Both the position numbers and the translations under genes were made by a program. Under the pieces are notes generated by a model. It had not been told where the DNA came from. It made no database searches and saw only the letters and a program-made list of their open reading frames with translations. Shown in pieces: positions 4,212 to 25,271 of a DNA stretch of 25,271 nucleotides (the stretch's first letter is position 1; the number at the start of each line of letters is the position of its first letter). This DNA comes from an uncultured Verrucomicrobiota bacterium (GTDB lineage: Bacteria > Verrucomicrobiota > Kiritimatiellia > CAIQIC01 > Lenti-01), in the NCBI GenBank assembly GCA_938003985.1, contig CALKWZ010000014.1, positions 1 through 25,271 of the forward strand, given 5' to 3'.

Positions 4212-4465
4212 CCCGAGAAGAAATCATCGCCAAAACCAACGCCGTGTTCGCCGAATCCTTCGAGATCGAGCCCGAGCGCCTGAAACCCGAAGCCAACGTC
4301 TTCCTCGATCTGGGGCTCGACAGCCTCGACACGGTGGATCTGGTGGTGGCGATCCAGAAGAAGTTCGGCGTGCAGATCCGCGACGACGAGCGCGTCCGGT
4401 CCATCCGCACGCTGGGCGACGTCTACGACTTCATCGCGACCATCCAGCAAGAAAAGCAGGGATGA
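4208..4465 (+). CDS. Acyl carrier protein (ACP-1)
   Basis: 85 aa, acidic. The LGLDSLDTVDLV motif contains the phosphopantetheine-attachment Ser. ATGA overlap with the upstream KS. Confidence 0.9.
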   Translation: MTREEIIAKTNAVFAESFEIEPERLKPEANVFLDLGLDSLDTVDLVVAIQKKFGVQIRDDERVRSIRTLGDVYDFIATIQQEKQG

Positions 4466-5211
4466 GGCGGGCTTGGGGCATCTGCTATTCGCTGGCGTTC
4501 TACCCTCTGCTGGCGGTCTACACCGTGTCGGCGGTGGCGGGGATGACGTTGTGGATGCTCCTCGGCGCGCCGTTCCATTCGCACCGGGGCAACATGCGCC
4601 GCTTTCGCCGCGCGATCATCTGGTACGGCGCAGGGGTCGTCCGGATCGTGGCGCGGCCCGTGCTGAAAACCGTCTACGAATCGCCGCCGCGGGACGTGCG
4701 GATCCCCAAGTTTTTCGTCGCCAACCACGTTTCCTCGCTGGATGCCTTCCTGCTGGCCCTGGTGCCCGAGGAGGGCGTGGAGGTCGTGAAGGCCTGGCCG
4801 TTCCGGTTGCCGATTCTCGGCGTTTTCGCGCGTCTGGCGGGTTTCTTGAACGTCGAGCGGATGGAGCCGGACGAATTCCGGGCGGCCGTGGAGGACCTGC
4901 TGGGCGAGGGCTATTCGATCGTGGTGTTTCCCGAAGGCACCCGCTCCGGCAGCCGGCAAGTGGGACCGTTCCACGGGGCGATGTTCCGCCTGGCGCTCGA
5001 GCTGCGCGTGCCCCTGGTGCCGGTGTGCATCGTCGGCAACGAGCGGACGCCGGCCAAGGGCTCCTGGATCCTGGAACCGGCGACCGTGCGGATGCGCTGC
5101 TTGCCGGAAATGGCGTGGAACGAGTTTAGCCACATGACGCCCTATCAGTTGAAAAACCACGTGCGCCGGCTGATCCAGGACGAAGTGGACCGCATGGGAG
5201 CGACCGCATGA
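4462..5211 (+). CDS. PlsC/LPLAT-family (lysophospholipid/1-acylglycerol-3-phosphate type) acyltransferase with an N-terminal membrane segment
   Basis: HX4D motif in NHVSSLD and an FPEGTRS motif. Hydrophobic N-terminus WGICYSLAFYPLLAVYTVSAVAGMTLWMLL. ATGA overlap with the ACP stop. Confidence 0.8.
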   Translation: MRRAWGICYSLAFYPLLAVYTVSAVAGMTLWMLLGAPFHSHRGNMRRFRRAIIWYGAGVVRIVARPVLKTVYESPPRDVRIPKFFVANHVSSLDAFLLALVPEEGVEVVKAWPFRLPILGVFARLAGFLNVERMEPDEFRAAVEDLLGEGYSIVVFPEGTRSGSRQVGPFHGAMFRLALELRVPLVPVCIVGNERTPAKGSWILEPATVRMRCLPEMAWNEFSHMTPYQLKNHVRRLIQDEVDRMGATA

Positions 5212-6518
5212 AGCCGTTGCCGCAAGACTTCGATCTGGCTTTCCGTTCCGCCGACGAAATCCAAGCCGTGCAGGAGCGGCGGTTGGCCGCGCATCTGCGG
5301 CAGTGCCGTCGCGCGCCGTTCTATCGAAAGACGCTGGCCGGCGTGGCAAAGCCTGCGCTGCGCCGCTTCCCGCTGGAAGCGCTGCGCGACTTGCCGCTGA
5401 CGACCAAAGCCGATCTGGAAGCGCGCAACGACGATTTCCTCGCCGTGCCGCCGGAGACGGTGCGCGACATCGTGCAGTCGTCCGGCACGACGGGCCGTCC
5501 TACGCGGGTGATGTACACGGCGCGGGATCTCGAGCGGCTGGCCTACAACGAGGCGGTCTGTTTCCGGGGCTGCGGCATGGGGCCGGGGGATCGCGTGCTG
5601 CTGACCTGCACGCTGGACCGCTGTTTCGTGGCCGGCTACGCCTACCACCTCGGCGCGCAGGCGGTCGGCGCATGCACGATCCGCAGCGGGCTCAATCTGG
5701 CGGAAGGCCACGCCGCGGTCATCGCGCTGCAAAGCCCGACGTTCGTCGTGGGCGTTCCGGGGTTCCTGCGCAAGCTCGGCAAGCACCTGCACGACCTGGG
5801 CCGGCCGCCGCAGGGCATCCGCGGACTGATCTGCATCGGCGAACCCCTGCGCGACGCGGAATTGCGTCCGACGGCGCTTTCGCAGGATCTGGAGCGCCTG
5901 TGGGGCGCACCGGCGTACTCGACCTATTCCTCGTCCGAAATCGTGACGTCGTTCTGCGAATGCGCCGCGCGGTGCGGCGGCCACGCCGCGCCCGATCTGG
6001 GCATCGTGGAAATCGTGGATGCGGACGGGAACGTCCTGCCGCCGGGGCAGGCGGGCGAGGTGGTCGTGACGCCGCTGGGCGTCGAGGGCATGCCGCTCGT
6101 CCGGTTCCGCACGGGCGACATCGGTTACTTGGCGGCCGAACCGTGCGCGTGCGGCCGGCAGACGCCGCGGCTGAGCCCGATCCTGGGCCGCCGCGCGCAG
6201 ATGCTGAAGATCCGCGGCACCACGTTCTACCCGGCCACCGCGTTCGAGGTGCTCAACGACGTGCCCGAAATCGGCGAATACTATCTCCAGGTCGAAACGA
6301 CGGGCGGGGAGGACCAGGCCAGCGTCCATCTGAGCCTCAGTCCCGACCGGCCCGAGACGCGCCGCAAGATCGAAGACCGGTTGCTGGCGCGCCTGCGCGT
6401 GCGGGTCCAGCTCTGCGTGGAGCCGGAAGACGACGTGCGCCGGCAGGTCTACGTGGCCCATTCGCGCAAACCCATCCGGTTCATCGACCGGCGCGGAACA
6501 ACGGCAGCCAAGGCTTGA
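5208..6518 (+). CDS. Adenylate-forming ligase of the phenylacetate-CoA ligase (PaaK)/coenzyme F390 synthetase-like type; probable starter- or acyl-activating enzyme
   Basis: SSGTTGRPTRV (P-loop-like AMP motif), YSSSE, and VRFRTGDIG (adenylation core motif). 436 aa. ATGA overlap with the upstream gene. Confidence 0.75.
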   Translation: MKPLPQDFDLAFRSADEIQAVQERRLAAHLRQCRRAPFYRKTLAGVAKPALRRFPLEALRDLPLTTKADLEARNDDFLAVPPETVRDIVQSSGTTGRPTRVMYTARDLERLAYNEAVCFRGCGMGPGDRVLLTCTLDRCFVAGYAYHLGAQAVGACTIRSGLNLAEGHAAVIALQSPTFVVGVPGFLRKLGKHLHDLGRPPQGIRGLICIGEPLRDAELRPTALSQDLERLWGAPAYSTYSSSEIVTSFCECAARCGGHAAPDLGIVEIVDADGNVLPPGQAGEVVVTPLGVEGMPLVRFRTGDIGYLAAEPCACGRQTPRLSPILGRRAQMLKIRGTTFYPATAFEVLNDVPEIGEYYLQVETTGGEDQASVHLSLSPDRPETRRKIEDRLLARLRVRVQLCVEPEDDVRRQVYVAHSRKPIRFIDRRGTTAAKA

Positions 6519-6520
6519 TC

Positions 6521-6877
6521 ATGGAAATCCTTGCCATCCATACCAATGAAGCCCGCGTGCGCTTTCCGGCGAACGCACCGTACTTCGCGGGGCATTTCCC
6601 CGGCCAACCCATCGTGCCGGGGGTCGTGCTGATCGACGCGGCGGTCCAGATCGCGGCGCAGGCGACCGCCCGCCCGTTGCGCCTCCTCCGGCTGGCCCAT
6701 GCCAAGTTCGTCCAGGCGGTCGGACCGGATCAGGAAGCCCTTTGGCGTTTCCAGATTGCGCCGGACCCGGACCGTTCGGAATGGCTCAAGGTTTCCGGCA
6801 AGTGGAGCCAAGGCGAGACCCGGATCGCCGAAATGCAATTCACCGCGGCAGACGAAGGAGATCGCGATGGCCCGTAG
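6521..6877 (+). CDS. FabZ/FabA-like hotdog 3-hydroxyacyl-ACP dehydratase (ApeI-like)
   Basis: 118 aa. FAGHFPGQPIVPGVVLIDA matches the HFPxxPxxPG catalytic-His motif of FabZ-type dehydratases. Confidence 0.75.
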   Translation: MEILAIHTNEARVRFPANAPYFAGHFPGQPIVPGVVLIDAAVQIAAQATARPLRLLRLAHAKFVQAVGPDQEALWRFQIAPDPDRSEWLKVSGKWSQGETRIAEMQFTAADEGDRDGP

Positions 6878-10296: not shown

Positions 10297-11651
10297 AGAT
10301 CCTGCTGGTCGCCTGCAATCCGGTCGTCGCGCCATACCCGGTCTATCCGCTGGGCATGGCGGTGATCGCCAGCGCCCTGAAGCAGGCCGGCCACGACGTG
10401 CGCCAGCACGACATGCTGGCCGGCAGATTTTCGCTGGATACGCTGCGGGAGGTCTTGGCCGCGGATCCACCCGGCCTGATCGGCGTGTCGTTCCGGAATC
10501 TCGACAACGTGAACGCGTGCAACGAAGCGTGGTACGTCGACCAGCTGGCCGAACTGGTGGCGGCGCTGCGCGCGGCGAGTTCCGCGCCGATCCTGTTGGG
10601 CGGTCCGGGTTTTTCCGTGATGCCGGAACAGGTGCTGGCGGCGTCGGGCGCGGATTACGGCGTGGTGGGGGAAGGGGAACGCCTGGTGGTCGAACTGGCG
10701 GATCGGTTGGCGCGCGGGGAGCGTCCGGAGCAGCGCATCTGGCGCGCCGGGGCCTCGCTGGACGCGGCCGGCATGGCGGCGCCCGCCTACGACGAGGCGA
10801 TTTTGGCTTTCTACCAGGGTTCTGGCGGCGTGACGCCGCTGCAAAGCAAGCGCGGTTGCCCGCACCGCTGCGCCTATTGCACCTATCCGCTGCTGGAGGG
10901 CCACCGGCTGCGCCCGCGCGATCCCGAGCAAGTCGTCGACGATATCGTGGCGCTCCAGGCGCGCGGCGCGAAACAGATCTTCTTCACCGATTCGATTTTC
11001 AACGACCAGGCCGGCCAATACCGCGCGCTGGTGGCGGCCATGCGGCGGCGGGGCGTCCAGATTCCCTGGACCGGATTTTTCCGTCCCGAAATGCTGTCGC
11101 CGGAAATCCTCGCGGACATGAAGGCGACGGGACTGAATTCCGTCGAACTGGGCTCCGACGCGACGTCCGACGCGACCCTGCGCGGCATGGGGAAGGATTT
11201 CACCTTCGCGGAGGTCAAGGCCGTTCATGATCGCTTTCTGGCGGCGCAACTGACGGTATCGCACTATTTCATGATGGGCGGTCCCGACGAAAGCCGCGAG
11301 ACGGTGGAAGAGGGCATCGCCAACGTCCTGCAACTGAAAGGCGCCGCCTCGTTCATTTTCCTCGGCGTGCGGATCCTGCCCGATACGCCCTTGGCCGCGC
11401 GGGCGCTGGCCGAGGGCCTGATCGGTCCCGATACCGATCTGCTGCATCCGATCTACTATTTCTCGCCCGCGCTCGATCGGGATTGGCTGCACGAGCGGTT
11501 GCAGGCGGCGTTCAAGCCCCATCGCCACGTGGTGTATCCGCCGGACGCGATGGACAGCGGTTTGGCCTTTTTGCATCGGTTGGGCTACACGGGCATGTCG
11601 ATCGATCTGCTGCTCAAGCGGGGCGACCGGCGCGGCCAGCGCGCGCAATGA
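10293..11651 (+). CDS. B12-binding-domain (class B) radical SAM enzyme. It resembles what I recall being annotated as the lipid biosynthesis B12-binding/radical SAM protein family.
   Basis: MKILLVACNP...YPLGMAVIASALKQAGHDV...IGVSFRNL...LLGGPG forms the B12-binding-like N-terminus. CX3CX2C in KRGCPHRCAYC, with Cys codons at 10857, 10869 and 10878. 452 aa. ATGA overlaps at both ends. Confidence 0.8.
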   Translation: MKILLVACNPVVAPYPVYPLGMAVIASALKQAGHDVRQHDMLAGRFSLDTLREVLAADPPGLIGVSFRNLDNVNACNEAWYVDQLAELVAALRAASSAPILLGGPGFSVMPEQVLAASGADYGVVGEGERLVVELADRLARGERPEQRIWRAGASLDAAGMAAPAYDEAILAFYQGSGGVTPLQSKRGCPHRCAYCTYPLLEGHRLRPRDPEQVVDDIVALQARGAKQIFFTDSIFNDQAGQYRALVAAMRRRGVQIPWTGFFRPEMLSPEILADMKATGLNSVELGSDATSDATLRGMGKDFTFAEVKAVHDRFLAAQLTVSHYFMMGGPDESRETVEEGIANVLQLKGAASFIFLGVRILPDTPLAARALAEGLIGPDTDLLHPIYYFSPALDRDWLHERLQAAFKPHRHVVYPPDAMDSGLAFLHRLGYTGMSIDLLLKRGDRRGQRAQ

Positions 11652-12627: not shown

Positions 12628-12654
12628 GACCGAAAATCGGATCAAGGAGCGACT

Positions 12655-12933
12655 ATGGACCCCCGCGAGCAAGCCCTGGCAGAAATCAAGAAGAAGCTGA
12701 AAGCCCAGTTGATCGATCACCTGAATCTCCAGGACGTCGCGCCGGAGCAGATTAAAGACGACGATCCGCTGTTCGGCGGCGGGCTGGGCTTGGATTCGCT
12801 GGACGCCGTGGAAATCGTGGTCGTCCTGCAGCGGCATTTCGGGGTGGAAATCAAAGACATGGAAGTCGGCCGCAAGGTCTTCCAGACGGTGAATTCGCTG
12901 GCCGATTTCATCTACGAAAAGACGCATGCCTAG
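12655..12933 (+). CDS. Acyl carrier protein (ACP-2)
   Basis: 92 aa. GLGLDSLDAVEIVVVLQRHF contains the attachment-site Ser. Strong AAGGAG RBS. Confidence 0.9.
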   Translation: MDPREQALAEIKKKLKAQLIDHLNLQDVAPEQIKDDDPLFGGGLGLDSLDAVEIVVVLQRHFGVEIKDMEVGRKVFQTVNSLADFIYEKTHA

Positions 12934-14121: not shown

Positions 14122-15143
14122 ACCTTGCCGGACTAGGCATCGTGTTTCCCGGCGGAGCGGGCGTGCCCGCGTTGCGGGAGGCGTTGTCCGCCGGCCGCCC
14201 GTTGGTGGGCGAAATGTTGGCCAAAGAACAGGTCCCGGTTTTGAAGGTGCCGGCCGCGGCCCTGACCGGGAATCCCGTGCTGGCGCCGGCCCGGCGGGCG
14301 GATCGCTTCTGCAAGATGACCCTGCTGGCGGCGACGGAAGCGCTGGCCGGCTGCCAAGCGGCGCCGGACCGCATCGGGATCATCCTGGCCACCGCGTTCG
14401 GTCCCCACGGCACGGTGTTCAAGTTCGTGAACGATCTGTTGGAATTCGGCGACGAGCAGGCGTCGCCGACGGTGTTTTCCCAATCCGTCCACGCCGCGGC
14501 GGCCTCGATGGTCGCGGCGGCGGCGCATCTGCACGGTCCGGCGCTGACCGTCGCGGATCTGGCGTTCCCGTTCGAGGAAGCGCTGGCGCTGGCGGATACC
14601 TGGTTGGCCGACGGCCGTTGCGACGCGGTGCTCGCGGGTGCGGTGGACGAAACCTCGGACGTGCTGGCCCACGTGGTCCGGCGCAAATGGGCGCCGGCGC
14701 CCGACGGGATCGCCCGTCCGGCGCAAGCGGGCCAGCCGGCCTACGTGCCCGGCGAGGGCGCCGTGTTCGTGCGCCTGGAACGCGGCAACGGCCCGCTGCT
14801 CACCGTGGCGGATGCGCCGGACGTTTCGGCCGCCGCGAATCTATTCAATGCCGGCGCGCTGGGCGGCGACGACGCGGCGCTCCGCAGGCTGGCGCAATCG
14901 GCCGTTTCCGCGCAAACGTTCGTGTCGCTGCTCGGCAACGTCCGCATCGGCAGCGCCTTCCATTTGGCGGTCGCCGGACTGATGCGCCAAGACGACCGAT
15001 TCTACCCCGACGTGCTGCCGGCGGACCAAACCGGGTTTTCCGGCGGCGGGACCGGTGCGCCCAAGGGACCGATCCAAGTGATTTCCGCATGCGGATCGCG
15101 CGTTCGCGCGATATCGCTCCAGGCGCATGGCGAACGAGGATGA
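14118..15143 (+). CDS. KS-like protein lacking the active-site Cys and His residues (chain-length-factor-like)
   Basis: ATGA overlap with the KS. It shows thiolase-fold-like sequence (RIGIILATAFGP...SPTVFSQSVHAAAASMVAAAAHLHGPALTV...CDAVLAGAVDE). The catalytic position reads ADLAFP rather than a Cys, and no HGTGT or GH motifs are present. Confidence 0.75.
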   Translation: MNLAGLGIVFPGGAGVPALREALSAGRPLVGEMLAKEQVPVLKVPAAALTGNPVLAPARRADRFCKMTLLAATEALAGCQAAPDRIGIILATAFGPHGTVFKFVNDLLEFGDEQASPTVFSQSVHAAAASMVAAAAHLHGPALTVADLAFPFEEALALADTWLADGRCDAVLAGAVDETSDVLAHVVRRKWAPAPDGIARPAQAGQPAYVPGEGAVFVRLERGNGPLLTVADAPDVSAAANLFNAGALGGDDAALRRLAQSAVSAQTFVSLLGNVRIGSAFHLAVAGLMRQDDRFYPDVLPADQTGFSGGGTGAPKGPIQVISACGSRVRAISLQAHGERG

Positions 15144-15399
15144 TATGGCGACGACCCCTGACGAAACGTTGTTGAAGCTGAAGGAACACGTGGCTTTCCT
15201 GCTGGGCGTGGAAGCCTCCGGCATCGCCGCCGACCAACCCCTGCACCTGCTCGGAATCGATTCGATGGGGTTCGTCGATCTGCTGGTGTTCATCGAAAAG
15301 CAATTCGGCCTGTCGCTGATGAACTCCGGCCTGTCCCAGGACGATTTCGCCTCGCTGGCGGTTCTGGCGGGCCGGATCGCCGGGGCCCGGCCATCATGA
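15127..15399 (+). CDS. Acyl carrier protein (ACP-3)
   Basis: LLGIDSMGFVDLLVFIEKQF contains the attachment-site Ser. The alternative start ATG 15145 lies just after the upstream stop and is preceded by GAGGA. Confidence 0.85.
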   Translation: MANEDDMATTPDETLLKLKEHVAFLLGVEASGIAADQPLHLLGIDSMGFVDLLVFIEKQFGLSLMNSGLSQDDFASLAVLAGRIAGARPS

Positions 15400-16748
15400 A
15401 GGTTCCGAGTTCTTCGCGCAAACGCTACTTGGGCGGAGCCGACTGGTGCGTGGCCGCGTTGCGGCAGGGCACCCTCGAAACCACGGGCAGGCCCATCACG
15501 TTCCACGTGGCGGTTTTCATCGCGGGGCGTCTCGATCCCGCCCGTCTCCAAGGTCGTTTCCAAGACTATTGCGCCCGTTTTCCGCTGCTTTGGGGCCGGG
15601 CCGCCCGCTGCTGGTGTCTGGCCCCGTATTGGAAAAGCCCGGCGAATTCCGCGGAGCGCAAGGCTCCTTTCCGGCACGTGGCGGACGGCGACGCAGCGAC
15701 TCCGGCCGCCGTGGCCCGCCGGATCGAAGAACTGGCCAACGATCCGGATCGTCTGCGCGGGTGCGCCGTTGCGTTGGAATTTCTGCAGGACGCCGCTGCG
15801 GCCGGCGCGCTCGTGTTTTCGTTCGACCATCTGTTGTTCGACGCGGCCGGCGCCGAGCGGTTCATCGACCTGTTCTGTCGATTTGCCGACGGTCGGGCGG
15901 CGGATGCCGAGTTCCCCGATCCGCAGGCGCCGGAGCCGGCGCACCTCGACCAATGGAGCAAGCGCTTCGCCAGCGGGCAGCAACTGAACCGCTCGCTGCG
16001 CGAATTGCTGCCCGGCGCGACCGCCAATCTGGAGTTGCCGGCAAATGCCCGGCGGCGTCCGTTCCGGTTCCGGGTCCTGTCCCTCACGGCGGAGGAAACG
16101 CGCCGCGCGCAGGAACAGGCGTTTGCGACGGCCGGCTACCTGATGTTCACGCCCTACGTGTTGGCCACGGCGGCCGCGACGTTCCAGCCGCGGTTCGCCC
16201 GGCGCGTCGCGCCCAACGCCGACTTCATCGTCACGGTTTCGACCAGCCGCCTGCGGCCGCCCGGCGAGCGCGCGCCGCACGTGTTTTTCAACGATCTCTC
16301 GTTTCTCTATTTCGGATTTCCCGTGGCCGAAGCGGGGGAGCGCGACGAGTTGGCCCGGACCTTGCGCGACCAGATGATCGCGCAGGTCAAGGCGGGCATG
16401 CCCGCCGCCGTAGAGGATTCCAACTTGCTCATGCGGATCTTGCCGCCGCGCGCCTTTTGGAAATTCATGTTCACGTTTTTCCGCAACCGGCTGTCGTCGT
16501 TCGCGCTGACCTGTCTGGGCGATCCCTTGCTCAAGACGAACAGCGTTCTGGGCGGCACGATCCGCACCCACGTCCATTTTCCCGTCATTCCCGTGCCGCC
16601 GGGCTTGGGGCTGATCCTGAACCGCAGCGGCGACGTTTACCACGTCGTGTTGTCCTATTTGGAGGGCGTCCTGTCCGAAGACGAAGTCGCGACGTTGCTG
16701 GACGAATTTCGCCAGCGCTTGCTCAACGGAGCTTCGCCGGAGCCATGA
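15396..16748 (+). CDS. Protein of unknown family with an HxxxD motif; putative condensation-domain/WS-DGAT/CAT-superfamily acyltransferase
   Basis: 450 aa. FSFDHLLFDAAGAERF places His145 (15828-15830) and Asp149 (15840-15842), resembling the HHxxxDG condensation motif. Size fits a C-domain fold. ATGA overlaps at both ends. Function inferred from one motif plus context. Confidence 0.45.
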   Translation: MKVPSSSRKRYLGGADWCVAALRQGTLETTGRPITFHVAVFIAGRLDPARLQGRFQDYCARFPLLWGRAARCWCLAPYWKSPANSAERKAPFRHVADGDAATPAAVARRIEELANDPDRLRGCAVALEFLQDAAAAGALVFSFDHLLFDAAGAERFIDLFCRFADGRAADAEFPDPQAPEPAHLDQWSKRFASGQQLNRSLRELLPGATANLELPANARRRPFRFRVLSLTAEETRRAQEQAFATAGYLMFTPYVLATAAATFQPRFARRVAPNADFIVTVSTSRLRPPGERAPHVFFNDLSFLYFGFPVAEAGERDELARTLRDQMIAQVKAGMPAAVEDSNLLMRILPPRAFWKFMFTFFRNRLSSFALTCLGDPLLKTNSVLGGTIRTHVHFPVIPVPPGLGLILNRSGDVYHVVLSYLEGVLSEDEVATLLDEFRQRLLNGASPEP

Positions 16749-17951: not shown

Positions 17952-18494
17952 ATGAAAACATCCCTGAAAACGATCTTTGTTGCGTTGATTGCCGTTGTCG
18001 CCCTCGTTGCCGTCGGATGGGCGGACGAAGTCGTCGGCAAGGTGACCGACACGGGATTCGGATCGTTCATGCTCGACGACGCCGGCACGCTGCGGCAATT
18101 CAATCTGTCTTCGCGGAACACCGCCTACGAGCCGACGAGTTGGCGGCCTACTTCCGGGGATGAAATCCGCGTGGCCTACACGCCCATTCAAAATCGGCGC
18201 GGAACGACGGTCTTGGCGGTGGATCAAGCCACCTTGGTCAAAGCGGGTCCCCACACGCTCGTCGACTTGGCCAGTCCCGTCGAAGTTGAAATCACCGAAA
18301 CGGGCCGCAGCGGCATCCGCGGCAAGATCCCCAGCGGCCAGATCGTGCGGTTCGCCTACGACCGCGGCGTGCAGCGGATCCCGGCCGGCTGGGTGCCCGT
18401 CGTCGGCGAAAAAGCCCGCGTAACCTTCCGTCTGGACGCCGAGCGCGGCTTCACCGTCGGATATTGGGCGCAAAACCTCGAAAAGCTGCCGTAG
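17952..18494 (+). CDS. Secreted/periplasmic protein of unknown function with an N-terminal signal peptide and two tandem ~65 aa repeats
   Basis: MKTSLKTIFVALIAVVALVAVGWA/DE signal-peptide-like N-terminus. GGAGAAG RBS at 17941-17947. The two halves share T[DE]TG...[QR]F...P..W.P..G[DE]..RV.[YF]. No Cys residues. Confidence 0.8.
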   Translation: MKTSLKTIFVALIAVVALVAVGWADEVVGKVTDTGFGSFMLDDAGTLRQFNLSSRNTAYEPTSWRPTSGDEIRVAYTPIQNRRGTTVLAVDQATLVKAGPHTLVDLASPVEVEITETGRSGIRGKIPSGQIVRFAYDRGVQRIPAGWVPVVGEKARVTFRLDAERGFTVGYWAQNLEKLP

Positions 18495-18496
18495 TC

Positions 18497-18525
18497 GACC
18501 ATTCCGGCCGGTTTCGGGTCTTTTT
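18497..18525 (+). terminator. Weak candidate intrinsic terminator after the secreted-protein gene
   Basis: GACC (18497-18500) pairs with GGTC (18517-18520), with an inner CCG/CGG pairing, followed by TTTTT (18521-18525). The alternative stem CCGGCCG (18504-18510) with CGGCCGG (18527-18533) is short and imperfect. Confidence 0.25.
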
Positions 18526-18561: not shown

Positions 18562-18630
18562 GCCGTTGCGGGCGGGGCGGGTTTGGCATATGTTTTCTCG
18601 ACGCTATTTTTGCCATTTCCGCTGTCCCAA

Positions 18631-20115
18631 ATGAGTTGCGCATCACTATTGTTCGGCCAGGAATTCTCCCCGGAGGAGATCGCCCAAACCAAGGCCGCCC
18701 ATGGCCTCCTGACCATGGAAGTCGAAGTCGGGACGGCCTGCAATTTCCGCTGCAAGTACTGCTACGTCGGCGACGGGAATTCCGTCGGCAACGGCAAATG
18801 CGCGGAATTGTCGCTGGACGAAATCCGCGACGTGATCGGGCAGGCCCAGGCGCTGGGGGCGCGCAAAATCATCCTGCTGGGCGGCGAACCCATGATCTAC
18901 GGTTTCACGCCGGAACTGTGCGAATGGATCCGCGGACGCGGCCTGGGCGTCGAGCTGTTCACCAACGGCACGAACATGACCGCCGAGATGGCCGCGCGGC
19001 TGTTCAAGCTGGGCGTGCACGTGGTCCTGAAATGGCATACCTCCGACCACCAGATCCAGGATTGGCTGGCGGGAGTGCCGGGCGCGGCCGCCATCATGTC
19101 CGACGCTTATCGCCATTTGCGCGCCGCCGGCTATCCCTCGACGGAGGCGAAGATGGCCTTGAGCACGGTGATCTGCCGCCAGAACGTCGCGGAACTGCCC
19201 AGCCTCTGGAAATGGATGCGCACCGAGGGCATCGAGCCGTATTTCGAGATGATCACCCCGCAAGGCCGCGCGCGGAACAGCGCCCACGACCTGTCGCCTT
19301 CGGTCGAAGAAGTCCGGCAGTTGTTCGAGACGATCCGCACGATCGATCGCGACCAATTCGGGCGGACTTGGGAAGCGCAGCCGCCGTTGGTCGGCAATGC
19401 CTGCCTGCGGCACTCGTTTTCCTGCTTGGTGGCGGCCTCGGGCGACGTCATGCCGTGCGTCGGGGTGTCGCTGCCGGTAGGCAACGTCCGCGAGCGGCCG
19501 CTGGCCGACATTTTGGCCGACAGCGAAGTCATCGCCGACCTGCGCGACCACGAAAACACCATCCAGGGCGCCTGCGGCGCCTGCGACAAGGCGGCGACCT
19601 GCTACGGTTGCCGCGGCGCGGCCTTCCAGTTGACCGGCAACTATCTGGGTTCGGATCCGCTTTGCTGGCGCAACCAGGCGGAAACCGTCGATTGCGGCCA
19701 GTTGCCGATCGATGCCGCGCGGCTGGTGCCGCATCAGGCGCCCGCCCGGATGGTCGCGGCGCTGGAGGCGGTGGGCGAACGGACCGCCACGGTTTCGGCC
19801 GTCATCGCGGACGACAATCCCCATTGCCGCGCGGGCCGGCTGGCGGAAGCGGCGCACGTCGAGTTGATGGCCCAGGCGGCGGCCGCCCTGCACGGGTATC
19901 GCTCCGCGACGCGGCCGGAGGCCGCTCCGCAGCGCGGGATGCTGGTCGGCGCCCGCAACCTGGAAATCCATGCGGACGTCCGCGTGGGCGATCGGCTGAC
20001 CGTGCGCCTGCACAAACAGGCCCGGCTCGGCACGTTCGGCGTGATCGACGCGGAAGTGCGCCGCGGCGAAACCGTGGTTTCGAAAGCGGAGCTGAAAACA
20101 TGGCACGCAGGATGA
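18631..20115 (+). CDS. Radical SAM enzyme with a SPASM-type auxiliary Fe-S domain, fused to a C-terminal hotdog (ApeP/FabZ-like dehydratase) domain
   Basis: CX3CX2C in GTACNFRCKYC, with Cys codons at 18739, 18751 and 18760. SPASM-like Cys pattern: CLRHSFSCLVAASGDVMPC (CX12GX4C), then CGACDKAATCYGC, then DPLCW. The C-terminal ~135 aa from about 19700 (LVPHQAPARMV...MLVGARNLEIHADVRVGDRLTV...GETVVSKAELK) looks like a hotdog dehydratase. Start ATG 18631 was chosen over in-frame TTG 18583. Confidence 0.75.
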   Translation: MSCASLLFGQEFSPEEIAQTKAAHGLLTMEVEVGTACNFRCKYCYVGDGNSVGNGKCAELSLDEIRDVIGQAQALGARKIILLGGEPMIYGFTPELCEWIRGRGLGVELFTNGTNMTAEMAARLFKLGVHVVLKWHTSDHQIQDWLAGVPGAAAIMSDAYRHLRAAGYPSTEAKMALSTVICRQNVAELPSLWKWMRTEGIEPYFEMITPQGRARNSAHDLSPSVEEVRQLFETIRTIDRDQFGRTWEAQPPLVGNACLRHSFSCLVAASGDVMPCVGVSLPVGNVRERPLADILADSEVIADLRDHENTIQGACGACDKAATCYGCRGAAFQLTGNYLGSDPLCWRNQAETVDCGQLPIDAARLVPHQAPARMVAALEAVGERTATVSAVIADDNPHCRAGRLAEAAHVELMAQAAAALHGYRSATRPEAAPQRGMLVGARNLEIHADVRVGDRLTVRLHKQARLGTFGVIDAEVRRGETVVSKAELKTWHAG

Positions 20116-20744
20116 GCCGTCGGCCACGTCGGATGGCGGGACTGATCTGCGGCCTGCTCGCCGTTCAGGTCTCCCTCGCCGCGGAACCCGCAACCGACGT
20201 CTTGGGTCAGATGGAACAGGCCATGGCGGACGTCAAAACCGTCAAAACCCGTTTCGTGCAGGAAAAGAAGATGGCCCTGTTCAACCATCCGCTGGTCACG
20301 CGCGGCAGCATCTGGGTCGAACCGCCGGAGCACTTGCTCTGGCGGGTGGAAAGCCCGATGCAGTACGCCCTGGCGCTCGACGGCTCCCGCGTCCGGCAAT
20401 GGGACGGCGAGACCGGCAAAACGACCAGCCTGTCCATGGACGGCAATCCCGTCTTCGCCGCCGTCACCGAGCAGCTCAATGCCTGGTTCGGCGGGCGCTA
20501 TGGCCTGCTGGCCCAGGATTACGACGTCGAGCAGCAGGTCGCCGCGCCCGCCACGTTCGTCTTCGTTCCCAAGCCGACCGCGCCGTCCGCGAAAATGCTG
20601 AAATCGGTGACGGTCGTTTTCCGCGCGGACGCGCGCTACATCGCGTCCATCCGGATCGACGACCGCAGCGGCGACGTCACCACGCTGACGTTCACCGAGA
20701 CCGAGATCAACGTCCCCTTGGATCCGAAAGCCTGGGAGCTGTAG
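20100..20744 (+). CDS. LolA-like outer-membrane lipoprotein-carrier family protein (ApeL-like), secreted
   Basis: Signal peptide RRMAGLICGLLAVQVSLAAEP. VKTVKTRFVQEKKMALF and a length of about 214 aa are typical of LolA-fold proteins. GGAG lies 8 nt upstream of ATG 20100. The alternative ATG 20112 forms an ATGA overlap with the upstream stop. Confidence 0.7.
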   Translation: MARRMSRRPRRMAGLICGLLAVQVSLAAEPATDVLGQMEQAMADVKTVKTRFVQEKKMALFNHPLVTRGSIWVEPPEHLLWRVESPMQYALALDGSRVRQWDGETGKTTSLSMDGNPVFAAVTEQLNAWFGGRYGLLAQDYDVEQQVAAPATFVFVPKPTAPSAKMLKSVTVVFRADARYIASIRIDDRSGDVTTLTFTETEINVPLDPKAWEL

Positions 20745-23161
20745 TGGCCGGGCCGTTTCGGGACAAGCTGCGGGCGGGTCTGCGGCGGCGGTCGGCCGTC
20801 TTGGGCTTGGTCGCGCTGGTCTTGCTGCTGTCCGCTGCCGCGTTGCCGTTCAGGAGCTTCAACGGGCGCATCGACGTCATGCTGCCGGACCGTTCCGAAC
20901 TGCGGGACGTTTTCGGTTTTCTGCGCGACATCCACGTCGCCGACAAAGTGCTGGTGACGCTTTCCATGCGCGCCGGGACGGTCGATCCCGACGCGTTGGC
21001 CGCGGCGGCCGATGCCTACGTCGCCGGTCTCGATCCGGCCTGGGCCGCGCCTCTGGCGGCGGGGAGCCCGGTTGCCGACGTGGCGGGGGACTTCGACCGC
21101 TTGGCGCGGCGGTTGCCGGACTATCTCGCCGCGGAAGATCTGGCCCGATTGCGCGACGGCGCGGCGTCGGCCGCCGGCATCCGGGCCTCGCTGCAGGCCC
21201 TGAAAAGCCGCCTGCAACGCCCGGAAGGGATGTGGTCCGCCGTTGCCCCCGGAGCCGATCCGCTGGACTGGAACGGCCGGCTGGCGGCGGGCATCCTCCA
21301 TGCGGTGTCCTCCTTCGGCTACCGCGCGGTGCCGGTGGGCAACCATCTGATGGACCCGGAGCGGCGCCATCTGCTGCTGGTGCTGCAAACACCCGTCCTG
21401 ATGACGGATACGGCCCGGGGCCGCGGCCTGCTGGAGCATCTCGCCGCGCGCGCCGCGGAACTGCCGCCGACGGTCGAAGCGCGGCTCGTGTGCGGGCATC
21501 TGCATACCGCCGGCAACGAAACCCTCATCCGGTGGGACGTCCAACGCACCGCGCTGGCGATTTCCGCCGTTTTCCTGGCGCTCTTTTGGGGCGTTTACCG
21601 CGATCCGCGCGCGCTGGCGATCATGCTGATCCCGATGCTGGCCTGCGTGCCCGCGCTGGCGTTGGCGGCGGCGTTTTTCGAGAGTTTTTCCTTCATCGTG
21701 CTCGGGTTCGGTTCGGTGATCGCGGGTATTGCCGTGGATTACGGCATCCATAGCTACGTCGCGGCGCGCAGCGCGCAGCCCGACCGCAATCTGGCGGCCA
21801 TTCGCCGCCCGGTTGCGCTGAGCGCGCTGACCACGCTCTGCGTGTTCATCGCGTTCTGTTTTTCCAGCATTCCGGCCTATCGGCAACTCGGGGCGTTCGC
21901 TTCGTTCGCCATCGTGATTTCGCTGGTGTACGCCTTCTGGGCCTTGCCCCCGTTCGTGCGTCGGCGCGCAACTGCGGTGCCGGAGCCGGTGCCGGCGGCG
22001 AGGGGCAACGGCTCGCGAACGCAGGCCGCCTGGATCGCGCTGGTCGCGGCGGCGGCGTTGGCGGCGGGGATTGGCTTGCTGGCCCGGCTGTCGCTGGATC
22101 CGGACGTTTCCAAACTGGACGGCACGCCGCAAGCGGTTCTCGACGAGGAGGCCCGGGCCATGGCGATCTGGGGCGGGGGGCAATCCATGGCCGCCATCCT
22201 CGTCGTGGAGGCTCCGGACGAGCAGGAAGCCCTACATCTGAACGACCGGCTGTACGAGGATTTGCAGGCCGCCGGGTTGCCGGCTTCCGAAATGTCCAGT
22301 CTGGCACCGCTGTGGCCCTCCGCCGCGACCCGCCAGGCGCGCCGCGCGGCTTGGAACGAAGCGTGGACGGACGAACGCATCGCCGAATTGCGCCGGACGC
22401 TGGCGACGGAAGCCGCCGCGCTCGATTTCTCGGAAGCCGCCTTCGCCGCCTTCTGGGAGCGGTTCGCGGAGTGGCGGGACCTGGCCGCCGAACAGGAGTC
22501 CGTCGGTTTCCTGGAGCCGCTGCGCCGGCAATTCATCCACGCGCAGGACGGCAAGGTGCGCGTGACGACGTTCGTCCCCGACGAGCCGCGCTGGATCGCG
22601 GCGGCCCAGGAGTTGCAACAAGAGCTGGCGGCGCTGCGCGTGATTTCCAGACGGGCGTTTTCGGCGGACTTGTCCGCGGCGGTGCTCGGCGAAATGCTGC
22701 GGACGACGATCTGGGCGGGAACGTTCATCCTGCTTGCGACGGGGCTGGTGCTGCGGCGCGCCGGCATGCTGGCGCTGGCCATCCTCCCGGCCGTGGCCGG
22801 CATGGTCTGGGGCGGGGCGGGCATGGCGTTGTGGGGACTGTCGCTGAACGTGTCCAATCTGGTCGCGGGCATCCTGGTCTTCGGTTTGTGCATCGACTAC
22901 GGCATCTGCATGGCCTATGCCCAGCGGCGCGGGATGCGGCGCGACATGTCCCGCGCGGTGACGCTGTCGGCGCTGACGACGGCGCTGGGCGCGGCGGTGC
23001 TGTTGATCGCCGACCATCCGGCCTTCCTGGCGATCGGCATCACGCTGGTGTTCGGCGTGAGCGCGGGTTACGTCTACGCCCGGTGGGTGTTGCCGGCGCT
23101 GCAAATCCTGTTCCCGCGCCTCAATCCGCCCGATGAATGCGCGGCGGAGGAGGGCGCATGA
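20744..23161 (+). CDS. MMPL/RND-superfamily membrane transporter (ApeM-like exporter)
   Basis: GTG start at 20744 overlaps the TAG stop, with GGGAG 6 nt upstream. 805 aa with two homologous multi-TM blocks, each preceded by a soluble loop and each containing a G[IL]xxDYGI motif (IAGIAVDYGIHSY and VFGLCIDYGICMAY). Confidence 0.8.
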   Translation: MAGPFRDKLRAGLRRRSAVLGLVALVLLLSAAALPFRSFNGRIDVMLPDRSELRDVFGFLRDIHVADKVLVTLSMRAGTVDPDALAAAADAYVAGLDPAWAAPLAAGSPVADVAGDFDRLARRLPDYLAAEDLARLRDGAASAAGIRASLQALKSRLQRPEGMWSAVAPGADPLDWNGRLAAGILHAVSSFGYRAVPVGNHLMDPERRHLLLVLQTPVLMTDTARGRGLLEHLAARAAELPPTVEARLVCGHLHTAGNETLIRWDVQRTALAISAVFLALFWGVYRDPRALAIMLIPMLACVPALALAAAFFESFSFIVLGFGSVIAGIAVDYGIHSYVAARSAQPDRNLAAIRRPVALSALTTLCVFIAFCFSSIPAYRQLGAFASFAIVISLVYAFWALPPFVRRRATAVPEPVPAARGNGSRTQAAWIALVAAAALAAGIGLLARLSLDPDVSKLDGTPQAVLDEEARAMAIWGGGQSMAAILVVEAPDEQEALHLNDRLYEDLQAAGLPASEMSSLAPLWPSAATRQARRAAWNEAWTDERIAELRRTLATEAAALDFSEAAFAAFWERFAEWRDLAAEQESVGFLEPLRRQFIHAQDGKVRVTTFVPDEPRWIAAAQELQQELAALRVISRRAFSADLSAAVLGEMLRTTIWAGTFILLATGLVLRRAGMLALAILPAVAGMVWGGAGMALWGLSLNVSNLVAGILVFGLCIDYGICMAYAQRRGMRRDMSRAVTLSALTTALGAAVLLIADHPAFLAIGITLVFGVSAGYVYARWVLPALQILFPRLNPPDECAAEEGA

Positions 23162-23835
23162 AACGGTTGCGGACCGGAGTCATGGTTATGGCCGGGCTGT
23201 GGCTGACGGGGTGCGCGACGGCGCCGTTCCAGCGGCCGGAACCGTTTGCGGCGACCGGACTCGCGCCGGAACGGGTTCCGGCGGCTTTCGCGGAACGCTT
23301 GGCGCCGCGCTACGAACAAGCGCAAGCTCTCGTGTTTCGCTTCTATCTGCGCGAAATCGCCGCGCTGGGCTATCTCTCCGTGGACGTGCCCGCCCGCTCG
23401 TTCGCGATGGCCTGCCTGAATCCGGTCGGCATCAAGTTGTTCGAGCTGGTCGGAACGAACGGCGAAGTCGAGGCCCGGTTCGTCGCGCCGGAAATCGAAA
23501 AGCACGGCGGCGAACTGGCGCAAGCGGCGGGGGCGGACTTGGCGCGGGCCTACTTCGATTGGCTGCCGCCGGCCGGCGCGACGTGCCGCCGCGCTAAAAA
23601 CCGGCTGATTTTCACCGCCGCGGATGCCGCGGGGCGCACGGAATACCGCTATGCCGGCCGCGACGGGTTTTTGGCCGAAAAAATCCGCATCGAAGCCGGC
23701 CGCGTTCGCTGGAAGGTGGACTATCGCGATTATCGCCGCGGCGCGGAGGGCTGGATCCCGACCGGACTGGTGATCCACAACCGGCGTTATGGCTATCGCC
23801 TGGTCGCCATCGCGAAAGAGTCGGAGGCTCCATGA
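23158..23835 (+). CDS. Lipoprotein of unknown function (position and size match the DUF3261-type lipoprotein that follows the MMPL gene in APE clusters)
   Basis: MKRLRTGVMVMAGLWLTGC contains a lipobox (LTGC). GGAGGAGGG RBS. ATGA overlap with the MMPL stop. The family call rests on synteny recall only. Confidence 0.7.
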   Translation: MKRLRTGVMVMAGLWLTGCATAPFQRPEPFAATGLAPERVPAAFAERLAPRYEQAQALVFRFYLREIAALGYLSVDVPARSFAMACLNPVGIKLFELVGTNGEVEARFVAPEIEKHGGELAQAAGADLARAYFDWLPPAGATCRRAKNRLIFTAADAAGRTEYRYAGRDGFLAEKIRIEAGRVRWKVDYRDYRRGAEGWIPTGLVIHNRRYGYRLVAIAKESEAP

Positions 23836-25271
23836 AAGTCCTGTTGGTGCGCCCCCATCTGATCCTGGCGCTGTCGCGCCGCTTCAATGCTTTCCTGCAT
23901 CTGGAGCCGTTGGATTTGGAGATCGTCGCCGGCGGCGTGGAAGCGCCGCACGAGGTGGAAATCCTGGACCTGTCGCACGGCCGGCGGCCGTTCGCCGCGC
24001 TGCGGCGGAAACTGCGCGACATGCGGCCGGATCTGGTGGGCTTCGGCTGCTACTCGAACCAAGCGGCGGCGGTGCGCGAGCTGGCTGGCCTCGTCCGGCA
24101 AGTCCTGCCGACCGCGAAGATCGCGGTGGGCGGGGTCCACGCCAGCATCGCGCCGCAGGACCTGAACCGGCCCGAATTGTACGATTTCGTGGTGCGCGGG
24201 GAGGGCTCCGTGGCCATCCGCCGCCTGCTGGCGGCGCTGGAGCGGGGCGCGGCCATCGCCGACGAAGGCGTGCTGCCCGTCGGCGCGCCCGAATTCGCCG
24301 CCTTGGCGGAAGGACCGCCGCCGGCCCATCCCGACTACCGCGAAGTGGCCAAGCCCCGCCGGGACTTGGTCGATCGCTCGAAGTATTTCTGCATCTGGTC
24401 CGGCAAGCCGGATGAAAGCCTGGCCACGCTCTATCCGCGCACGGCGTCCATGCGCACCAGCGTGGGCTGTCCGCGGCGGTGCAGCTTCTGCGTCGTGCAT
24501 TTCCTGGCCCATGGGCGCTATATCCAGCGGGATCCCGCCGACGTCGTGGACGAAATCGCGTCGATCCCGGAGGATTACGTCTATTTCGTGGACGACGAAA
24601 TGTTCATCAATCCCGTGCGCGCCGAAGCGATCGCGCGCCTGCTGCTCGAACGGGGCGTGCGCAAGCAGTACGTCAGCTGGGCGCGCAGCGACACCATCTG
24701 CGCGCATCCGGAGCTGTTCAAGCTGTGGCAGCGGGCCGGCCTGCAAGTCGTCTACGTCGGGTTGGAATCGATGGAAGCGGATGCCCTGAAAAACTTCAAC
24801 AAGGGCGTCGATCCGGACACCAACCGCCGGGCCGTGGCGATCCTGCGCGAGGCCGGCATCGTGCTGCATTCGGCGCTGATCGTGAATCCCGATTTCACCC
24901 AAGCGGATTTCCAGCGGCTGCACCGGACGGTCGCGGCCATCGCGCCGGCGGAAATGTCCTTCACGGTGCTGGCGCCGTCGCCGGGCACGGACTTCTGGCG
25001 GGAAACCCGCGCGCGGTTCATCGCGCCCGATCCGTACGCCTTCTACGACTGCATGCACACGCTGTTGCCGACGCGCCTGCCCATGCGCACGTTCTACCGC
25101 TATTTTTCGCTGCTGTACCTGCGCGGATTCCAGCACAATCCCTGGCGCGCGCACCGCGTGAAGGTGCCGTTCCGGGATCTGCTGCGGCTGATGTGGAGCG
25201 GAGCGCGCACCGGCTGGACCCTGCACGGGCTCCACCGCGATTATCCGCCCGAAGCCCGCGCGGCGTGCGGG
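23832..25271 (+). CDS. B12-binding-domain (class B) radical SAM enzyme, 3'-truncated by the window end
   Basis: GGAGG RBS and an ATGA overlap with the upstream stop. MKVLLVRPH...LVGFGCYSNQAAAVRELAGLVRQVLPTAKIAVGGVH forms the B12-binding-like N-terminus. CX3CX2C in SVGCPRRCSFC, with Cys codons at 24468, 24480 and 24489. The frame is open for 480 codons to 25271. It is absent from the ORF track only because it has no stop. Confidence 0.8.
   Translation, partial: MKVLLVRPHLILALSRRFNAFLHLEPLDLEIVAGGVEAPHEVEILDLSHGRRPFAALRRKLRDMRPDLVGFGCYSNQAAAVRELAGLVRQVLPTAKIAVGGVHASIAPQDLNRPELYDFVVRGEGSVAIRRLLAALERGAAIADEGVLPVGAPEFAALAEGPPPAHPDYREVAKPRRDLVDRSKYFCIWSGKPDESLATLYPRTASMRTSVGCPRRCSFCVVHFLAHGRYIQRDPADVVDEIASIPEDYVYFVDDEMFINPVRAEAIARLLLERGVRKQYVSWARSDTICAHPELFKLWQRAGLQVVYVGLESMEADALKNFNKGVDPDTNRRAVAILREAGIVLHSALIVNPDFTQADFQRLHRTVAAIAPAEMSFTVLAPSPGTDFWRETRARFIAPDPYAFYDCMHTLLPTRLPMRTFYRYFSLLYLRGFQHNPWRAHRVKVPFRDLLRLMWSGARTGWTLHGLHRDYPPEARAACG

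Follow-up and report, generated by a model that had tools for sequence, protein, structure and literature searches.

A radical SAM-SPASM protein fused to an ApeP-type hotdog domain within an aryl-polyene-like gene cluster of an uncultured Verrucomicrobiota bacterium

The window analysed here is the whole 25,271-bp stretch of contig CALKWZ010000014.1 (assembly GCA_938003985.1), from an uncultured bacterium of the Verrucomicrobiota. It has a GC content of 68%, and every gene was found on the + strand in an analysis of reading frames by GC content at third codon positions (GC3). Towards its 3' end lies a gene for a protein of 494 residues plus stop, encoded by one uninterrupted open reading frame (ORF), in which a radical S-adenosylmethionine (SAM) domain and a SPASM region are joined to a C-terminal hotdog domain of the ApeP type (Table 1). 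An earlier note on this DNA, made from the sequence letters, had proposed such a fusion of three elements in a single ORF. We found the fusion to be real and conserved, with 118 full-length homologues sharing the same architecture at 48-92% identity.

Table 1. Positions of the fusion gene, its parts and neighbouring features in the window (ACP, acyl carrier protein; pLDDT, predicted local distance difference test)
Feature	Position	Strand	Evidence or remark
Fusion gene, radical SAM + SPASM + ApeP-type hotdog	18631..20115	+	ORF list, homologue N-termini, GC3
CX3CX2C motif CNFRCKYC, residues 37-44 (C37, C41, C44), radical SAM [4Fe-4S] ligands	18739..18762	+	Motif search
Radical SAM core, PF04055 match	18724..19194	+	Pfam 70.4 bits, E 2.6e-19
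SPASM region, eight Cys (C258, C265, C276, C315, C318, C324, C327, C345) plus G271	19402..19665	+	Pfam, motifs, alignment
Short interdomain linker	19666..19701	+	pLDDT <50 at residues 351-355; same place as the split in Desulfonatronum
ApeP-type hotdog domain, residues 358-494	19702..20112	+	Profile, fold, domain model
Arg403 codon; ApeP (6qsr_B) has the His of "DGHLP" at this place	19837..19839	+	Alignments
Glu411 codon, V-E-LMAQ, central helix, FabZ-type catalytic Glu position	19861..19863	+	Alignments
ApeI/FabA-like short hotdog protein, 118 residues, proposed heterodimer partner	6521..6877	+	Family profile, GHFP motif
ACP 1 (PP-binding)	4220..4465	+	Pfam
Other two ACPs	~12640-12933 and 15127-15399	+	
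PaaK-like AMP-dependent ligase, ApeH-equivalent	5208..6518	+	
LolA-like, MMPL-like exporter and DUF3261 genes	20133..23835	+	
B12-binding radical SAM genes, three	9031-10296, 10293-11651, 23898-25271	+	Third runs past window end
Sigma-70-like promoter match TTGGCA-16-TATTTT	18583..18610	+	Consensus match only, weak evidence
Terminator-like hairpin 3' of the preceding gene	18503-18518		Weak evidence

A conserved fusion in one reading frame

The frame of the fusion gene is already open from position 18583, and the ATG at 18631 was chosen as the start by reference to the homologues, whose N-termini read MSC..., as does the window protein (MSCAS...). GC3 stays between 0.79 and 0.87 in the same frame from 18601 to 20100 without any frame switch, the domain junction included. 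Relatives were collected from 5.8 billion proteins, which gave 1,559, and the architecture was read in the best 120 of these. Nearly all of the 120 are about 490 residues long, and all but two combine Radical_SAM, SPASM and PF22817. It was noted that the public label of the 90%-cluster entries is just "radical SAM protein".

An assembly or sequencing artefact, in which a frameshift joined two genes, would agree with the natural occurrence of split versions and with the many database entries for the C-terminal domain only, which are short contig-end fragments. This explanation is ruled out by the 118 independent full-length sequences from many phyla and sources, together with the continuous GC3 frame and the intact fused ORF in an isolate genome, that of the type strain Victivallis vadensis DSM 14823. 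The identical protein was also found on 6 contigs. We regard the probability of an artefact as negligible, and the fusion is real and ancient.

The CX3CX2C motif and the full SPASM cysteine constellation named in the earlier note were located exactly, and both domains score above their Pfam cut-offs. Radical_SAM reaches 70.4 bits against a cut-off of 29.5, which together with the motif places the protein in the superfamily, and SPASM reaches 32.4 bits against 21.5. Each of the three cysteines of the radical SAM motif is present in 119/119 sequences of the full-length alignment, to which the counts over 119 sequences in this text refer. The SPASM spacing is C258-X12-G271-X4-C276, with C265 additional, followed by C315-X2-C318-X5-C324-X2-C327 and then C345. 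This follows the PF13186 pattern CX9-15GX4C...CX2CX5CX3C...C, with a final spacing of X2 here instead of X3. Seven of these cysteines are found in 119/119 sequences and C265 in 117/119, Gly271 is invariant, and the region is predicted from these residues to bind two auxiliary [4Fe-4S] clusters.

A fold search with the N-terminal part of the protein returned SkfB, SuiB, BlsE, PqqE, viperin and anSME. The nearest NCBIfam models are small-molecule or cofactor SPASM enzymes, namely AhbD (138.5 bits, cut-off 500), NirJ2 (109.7 bits, cut-off 500), MftC (99.1 bits, cut-off 265) and PqqE (91.4 bits, cut-off 381). The protein thus falls outside each of these equivalog families, and with scores so far under the cut-offs the reaction of no characterised enzyme is transferable to the fusion. 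None of the NCBIfam models is specific to the fusion, ApeP or ApeI. Outside the cluster motifs, Cys182 (codon 19174-19176) is present in 116/119 sequences and Cys3 (codon 18637-18639) in 98 of the 101 sequences having the N-terminus; both are possible catalytic or hydrogen-atom-donor residues.

The hotdog domain and its candidate ApeI-like partner

The C-terminal domain is a hotdog domain, and specifically an ApeP-like one. A profile of 20 C-terminal domains of the family, searched against the Protein Data Bank (PDB), matched chain B (ApeP) of entry 6QSR at E 6e-17 over 134/145 positions, and the anammox amxFabZ and canonical FabZ structures came after it. The window domain as a single sequence reached the same chain at E 1.7e-4. 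For the AlphaFold model of the full-length protein we obtained a pLDDT of 80.3 and a predicted template modelling score (pTM) of 0.80, and for the hotdog domain alone a pLDDT of 90. A Foldseek search with the domain model ranked 6qsr_B first, at a query-normalised template modelling score (TMq) of 0.79, followed by about 50 FabZ chains. The models have the hotdog topology of two strands, a long central helix (residues 406-421) and four long strands.

The ApeP-type assignment is made because of this family profile and fold match, and not because of the Pfam score, which is weak. The ApeP-like model (PF22817) gives the window protein 14.0-17.8 bits, under its cut-off of 27, and is matched at E<=0.1 by 17 of the 20 family members, the best at 4.7e-8. 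Of the domain searches proposed in the earlier note, those for Radical_SAM and SPASM therefore came out above cut-off and that for ApeP-like came out below it, and the ApeP/FabZ-type hotdog that it had named is borne out by profile and fold. We also considered whether the domain could act as a thioesterase of the 4HBT type and release the radical-modified product, a reading to which we give only a very slim chance. Hotdog thioesterases likewise rely on an acidic residue close to the central helix, and there is a weak Pfam 4HBT match (E 0.11), but by profile and by fold the domain matches ApeP and FabZ and not thioesterases, just two of the family members match 4HBT, weakly, against the 17 that match ApeP-like, and the cluster already encodes a dedicated 4HBT thioesterase.

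The active site of FabZ is formed by the His of a GHFP motif ahead of the central helix and a Glu on that helix (IIEAMAQ), which come from opposite protomers. In the fusion, Glu411 falls in the alignments on the E of IEMMAQ (6qsr_B) and of IIEAMAQ (FabZ), and both Glu411 and Gln415 are present in 119/119 sequences. Position 403 is occupied by R, T, V, A, S, K, E or G and is His in 0/119. Among ApeP-like representatives from a library of 1.84 billion proteins, just 2 of the closest 147 carry His at the equivalent position. In the PDB matches, His48 of amxFabZ is given as a mutated residue.

The LVPHxxPxxMV motif, which had been read earlier as a dehydratase signature, is present as LVPHQAPARMV (residues 365-375, starting at nt 19723) and, as an "LPHRxPF"-like motif, forms the N-terminal strand. 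Its His is kept in 73 of the 119 sequences and replaced by Q in the other 46, and this variation rules it out as the catalytic residue; the catalytic His of FabZ belongs to GHFP. A self-sufficient FabZ-like dehydratase is also ruled out, as the His-equivalent is never His in the 119 sequences, and the NCBIfam FabZ model gives the fusion protein 22 bits against a cut-off of 113. The hotdog-dehydratase module of the earlier note accordingly does not hold as such: the domain lacks the catalytic His and would represent half of a split active site, with Glu411 only.

A His-bearing ApeI-like protomer is encoded separately within the same cluster. The codon of its GHFP His is at 6593-6595, and the sequence around it reads AGHFPGQPIVPGVVLIDAAVQ. 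The profile of this family reached ApeI, chain 6qsr_A, at E 5.6e-13, and the gene is present in 26 related loci, in whose orthologues the GHF His is invariant. A Glu-only fusion subunit together with a His-keeping ApeI-like subunit is what one would expect of two proteins that build a single composite active site as a heterodimer. Most of the ApeI-like orthologues have Q, L, A or G at the acid position, His+14. The window protein has an Asp at this position, which it shares with ApeI of Xenorhabdus doucetiae.

The wider ApeP-like family was characterized by an exhaustive profile search, which gave 4,260 representatives at E<=1e-3. Among the best 150 of these, 90 are stand-alone proteins, and in 48 the domain is preceded by at least 90 residues; 28 of those 48 are at least 440 residues long and are of the fused type. 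The same best 150 include 12 proteins of 275-315 residues in which the ApeP-like domain is N-terminal. Four of these were checked by Pfam, and three had an ApeI/FabA-like second half, P0405 giving just a weak FabA match. By motif, a Glu-only half and a His-bearing half were found in 12/12. Such ApeP-ApeI tandem fusions provide independent Rosetta-stone support for contact between ApeP and ApeI.

Further domains are carried by some relatives, but these architectures are rarer. P0062 (727 residues) and P0303 (720 residues), related to window positions 18631-20744, have radical SAM, SPASM, ApeP-like and a C-terminal LolA in a single ORF; either the LolA-like gene that lies downstream has become part of a triple fusion, or a stop codon was missed. 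In P0300 (717 residues), a PlsC acyltransferase is fused upstream.

Gene neighbourhood and distribution

The first seven genes of the window encode a short-chain dehydrogenase/ketoreductase (SDR/KR), a phytoene-desaturase-like (PDS) flavoenzyme, a ketosynthase (KS), an ACP, a PlsC-like acyltransferase, a PaaK-like ligase and the ApeI-like dehydratase. They are followed by genes for a 4HBT thioesterase, a KS, two B12-radical SAM enzymes, an LpxL-like acyltransferase, an ACP, a KS with chain length factor (KS-CLF) and another ACP (genes 8-14), and then for an unknown protein of 450 residues, an FAD oxidoreductase, a secreted unknown protein of 180 residues and the fusion protein (genes 15-18). 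A LolA-like protein, an MMPL-like exporter, a DUF3261 protein and the third B12-radical SAM enzyme are encoded by genes 19-22. All the components of an aryl-polyene-like type II polyketide synthase (PKS) gene set are found in the window: KS/CLF, ACPs, KR, ApeI/ApeP, ligase, 4HBT, acyltransferases, LolA, MMPL and DUF3261. As judged from gene content, the cluster is an aryl-polyene gene set with three additions, namely the flavoenzyme, the B12-radical SAM enzymes and the SPASM domain. For the B12-radical SAM genes a role in C-methylation would be a guess.

A conserved gene order recurs, whole or for the most part, in about 20 loci of other phyla, namely SDR-PDS-KS-ACP-PlsC-AMP ligase-[fusion]-LolA-MMPL-DUF3261-ApeI-4HBT-KS-B12rSAM-B12rSAM, where B12rSAM stands for the B12-radical SAM genes. 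Wherever the flank of a related locus is long enough, the LolA-MMPL-DUF3261 genes lie directly 3' of the fusion gene. The gene 5' of the fusion varies by lineage and encodes the AMP ligase, PlsC or the FAD oxidoreductase, the AMP ligase being directly upstream in most related loci. Most of the related loci are without another ApeP-like gene. In one Nitrospirota metagenome-assembled genome (MAG), at L018:5279-6200, a second, stand-alone ApeP-like gene adjoins an ApeI-like gene, besides the fused protein in the locus.

Several neighbouring genes of the window have features of their own. The ketosynthase encoded at 7400-9028 has a C-terminal extension of about 220 residues that matches no Pfam or NCBIfam family, and its orthologues give two separate tblastn segments. 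The 450-residue ORF (15396-16748) has a good coding signal, belongs to no Pfam or NCBIfam family and is 45% identical to its counterpart in the closest related locus, L001. The 180-residue ORF (17952-18494) has a signal-peptide-like N-terminus, MKTSLKTIFVALIAVVALVAVGWA, and matches no family. It has no counterpart at the equivalent position in L001, and therefore does not qualify as a conserved partner of the fusion enzyme or as its precursor.

These neighbours bear on whether the fusion is a peptide maturase, like most SPASM proteins, acting in the making of a ribosomally synthesized and post-translationally modified peptide (RiPP) or a cofactor, with the surrounding lipid genes coincidental or secondary. 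Such a role would be in line with its closest folds (SkfB, SuiB, PqqE and anSME) and with the presence of MftC, PqqE and several RiPP maturases among the closest NCBIfam models, though the top two of these models, AhbD and NirJ2, are tetrapyrrole enzymes and not peptide enzymes. No RiPP recognition element (RRE) or PqqD domain was matched by Pfam in the fusion protein or its neighbours, and only 36 residues precede the cluster motif in the fusion protein. No conserved precursor-peptide gene was seen near the fusion across the loci, in which small ORFs were not exhaustively searched, and both the variable upstream gene and the 180-residue ORF missing from L001 tell against a dedicated peptide substrate. 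Moreover, the domain to which the radical enzyme is fused is a subunit of an acyl-ACP dehydratase, and the synteny with KS, ACP, acyltransferase and export genes holds across phyla. We consider a peptide maturase highly improbable. The acyl-ACP- or lipid-directed role proposed in the earlier note is the best reading, because the context consists of ACP, ketosynthase, acyltransferase and lipid-export genes and neither an RRE nor a precursor peptide was seen.

The fusion belongs to a syntenic cluster that spans at least eight phyla. From a scan of GTDB species genomes, fused loci were found in Nitrospirota/Thermodesulfovibrionia, Omnitrophota, Desulfobacterota and several "Deltaproteobacteria", Planctomycetia, a Brocadiia MAG and Phycisphaerales. 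They were further encountered in Lentisphaerota, Verrucomicrobiota/Kiritimatiellia, Spartobacteria and other lineages of the Planctomycetes-Verrucomicrobia-Chlamydiae (PVC) group. The hosts are mostly non-anammox, one of them being an unclassified Brocadiia MAG (L017).

The two parts of the fusion are also found apart. In Desulfonatronum sp. SC1, the radical SAM-SPASM protein (354 residues) and the ApeP-like protein (156 residues) are encoded by separate neighbouring genes in the same syntenic cluster, so that the split orthologues for which the earlier note had suggested a check, on Rosetta-stone logic, do occur. The gene boundary coincides with the low-confidence linker of the fusion model, where about 12 residues join a complete SPASM radical SAM enzyme to the Glu-only ApeP-type hotdog domain; the stand-alone ApeP-like protein P0181 begins MIQLPHSAADLMPH. 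A PIN/DUF6364 toxin-antitoxin pair lies on the opposite strand exactly between the split genes (L082:7242-7897), and another PIN gene follows the MMPL gene in this genome.

Proposed role and relation to known systems

We consider it probable that the fusion protein, as the ApeP-type subunit, donates the Glu to a heterodimeric ApeI:ApeP dehydratase, that this dehydratase serves an aryl-polyene-like type II PKS/fatty acid synthase (FAS) system, and that the SPASM radical SAM part of the fusion protein acts on an ACP-bound intermediate. The domain identities, residue patterns, pattern of fusion and fission and synteny are shown by the data described above, and the pairing of the two subunits, the ACP-bound substrate and the type of radical chemistry are inferred.

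Several findings weigh against it. The window sequence itself lies under the Pfam cut-off for ApeP-like, and the NCBIfam matches all lie far under theirs. The crystallised X. doucetiae pair has both residues in each subunit (His and Asp in ApeI, His and Glu in ApeP), and the contact between ApeI-like protein and hotdog domain is one that we infer from residue complementarity and fusion logic. In addition, radical SAM-SPASM orthologues free of a hotdog domain, at 50-55% identity, were found in Desulfobulbaceae, Desulfobacteraceae and Allochromatium palmeri, and no ApeP-like gene was found by tblastn within 10 kb of these unfused orthologues. The radical enzyme can therefore work without the hotdog domain.

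The cluster of the unfused clade is smaller, comprising B12rSAM, LpxL-like, ACP, KS, PlsC, B12rSAM and radical SAM-SPASM genes, and a FabA/ApeI-like gene is present in a few of its loci (e.g. L022, L030 and L052). A rough neighbour-joining tree places this clade in the midst of the fused ones. Fused and unfused forms alike are associated with KS, ACP and acyltransferase genes, which supports a lipid or acyl-ACP substrate, and the fusion most likely keeps the radical enzyme close to the dehydratase and the ACP. The unfused variant of the gammaproteobacterial purple sulfur bacterium Allochromatium palmeri DSM 15591 (L048, 9995-11056) is of a kind otherwise characteristic of Desulfobulbaceae and groups with them in the tree, and this suggests that the variant cluster was acquired by horizontal transfer.

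The hotdog domain could alternatively be a non-catalytic docking pseudo-dehydratase, which presents the acyl chain or the ACP to the radical SAM site and has no partnership with the ApeI-like protein. The invariance of Glu411 and Gln415 is hard to explain for mere binding, and the split into Glu-only and His-only partners recurs in stand-alone and tandem-fused relatives. A docking role would account for the missing catalytic His in all 119 members and for the orthologues that function without the domain. In the Nitrospirota locus with the extra ApeP-like/ApeI-like pair, that pair could perform the dehydration, but most related loci have no other ApeP-like gene that could do so. On balance we judge the docking role unlikely.

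In the heterodimer reading that we prefer, the hotdog domain would pair with the ApeI-like protein (6521-6877), which would supply the GHFP His, and the two would constitute the pathway dehydratase with a single composite site. The fusion would keep the radical SAM site beside the point at which the ACP delivers the growing beta-hydroxyacyl or enoyl chain, and the ACP-bound beta-hydroxyacyl or enoyl intermediate would be passed to this adjacent site. There, a 5'-deoxyadenosyl radical would take a hydrogen atom from the chain and a second electron would be removed via the two auxiliary clusters. By analogy with anSME, AhbD, MftC and PqqE, the net outcome may be a two-electron oxidation (desaturation) or the formation of a C-C bond. 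The radical cross-linking or oxidation coupled to dehydration that the earlier note had proposed is likewise a putative step. The product would then be released, attached and exported by the neighbouring thioesterase, acyltransferases and LolA/MMPL/DUF3261 proteins.

More tentatively, and with somewhat less than even confidence, we suggest that the dehydratase-radical SAM complex carries out an anaerobic desaturation or a C-C cyclisation or cross-link on an ACP-tethered polyene or beta-hydroxyacyl chain. It would then be the first ACP-dependent SPASM enzyme and the signature of an exported class of outer-membrane lipids. The same tentative suggestion would assign these lipids to anaerobic PVC bacteria, Nitrospirota, Omnitrophota and Desulfobacterota, and would posit an evolutionary tie to the radical SAM-rich, FAS-like clusters that are candidates for ladderane synthesis.

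The family amounts to a radical SAM-SPASM enzyme that is permanently joined to the dehydratase of an assembly line working with ACPs and is kept with its partners across many anaerobic phyla, among them a cultured gut bacterium, V. vadensis DSM 14823. This architecture bears on the coupling of radical chemistry to type II PKS/FAS elongation, on the products of the widespread clusters that resemble the ladderane candidates, and on the recruitment of extra enzymes by split-site ApeI:ApeP dehydratases. Should the reading fail, the domain assignments would still be an annotation upgrade over the database label.

Among known systems, the closest counterpart of the dehydratase is the ApeI:ApeP pair of X. 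doucetiae (PDB 6QSR), whose chain B is the best profile and fold match of the C-terminal domain and whose chain A is matched by the short hotdog gene. ApeI and ApeP have been described as "heterodimeric dehydratases with a single active site" (PMC8041823). Unlike X. doucetiae ApeP, the window ApeP domain has a radical SAM-SPASM N-terminus of 355 residues, and it reads AGRL where ApeP has DGHLP. With the aryl polyene system as a whole the window cluster has in common the ligase, KS, ACPs, KR, 4HBT, LolA, MMPL and DUF3261, and it differs in adding a phytoene-desaturase-like flavoenzyme and two to three B12-radical SAM enzymes. In Acinetobacter baumannii, the ligase ApeH and ApeI form one fused protein (PMC8041823), and protomers of the Ape dehydratase are therefore known as fusion partners. 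As in the window, one dehydratase protomer is fused to a pathway enzyme and the other is separate; there, however, it is ApeI that is joined to an adenylating ligase, whereas here it is ApeP that is joined to a radical SAM-SPASM enzyme.

With AhbD, NirJ/NirJ2, MftC, PqqE and anSME the fusion shares the CX3CX2C motif and the cysteine set for two auxiliary clusters, but none of these has a hotdog domain or an ACP-linked substrate. The earlier note knew of no characterised SPASM enzyme directed at lipids. This does not hold in general, since Tes of archaeal tetraether synthesis, and probably Gms too, has a SPASM domain and acts on lipid chains (review PMC13459092). It does hold for a characterised radical SAM enzyme wired to an ACP-dependent dehydratase, of which literature searches found none. 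By description, Tes and Gms resemble the fusion as SPASM radical SAM enzymes on lipid chains, and they differ in acting on isoprenoid membrane lipids and not on ACP-bound acyl chains, and in having no dehydratase domain.

The FAS-like clusters proposed as candidates for ladderane or polyunsaturated fatty acid synthesis, which include Kuenenia kuste3335-3352 and Desulfotalea DP1853-1860, are on record from both anammox bacteria and deltaproteobacteria (Rattray 2009, Javidpour 2016). By their published gene lists they share with the window cluster FabF paralogues, ACPs, FabG, FabZ-like, phytoene-desaturase-like and phenylacetyl-CoA-ligase-like genes, a membrane protein and several radical SAM genes. 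They differ in that the papers list just a "SAM radical enzyme" and describe no SPASM-hotdog fusion, and literature searches over 8 million full texts found no publication on a SPASM-hotdog/ApeP fusion. The parts, a SPASM radical SAM enzyme, an ApeP subunit and an aryl-polyene-like cluster, are known, and their combination is new.

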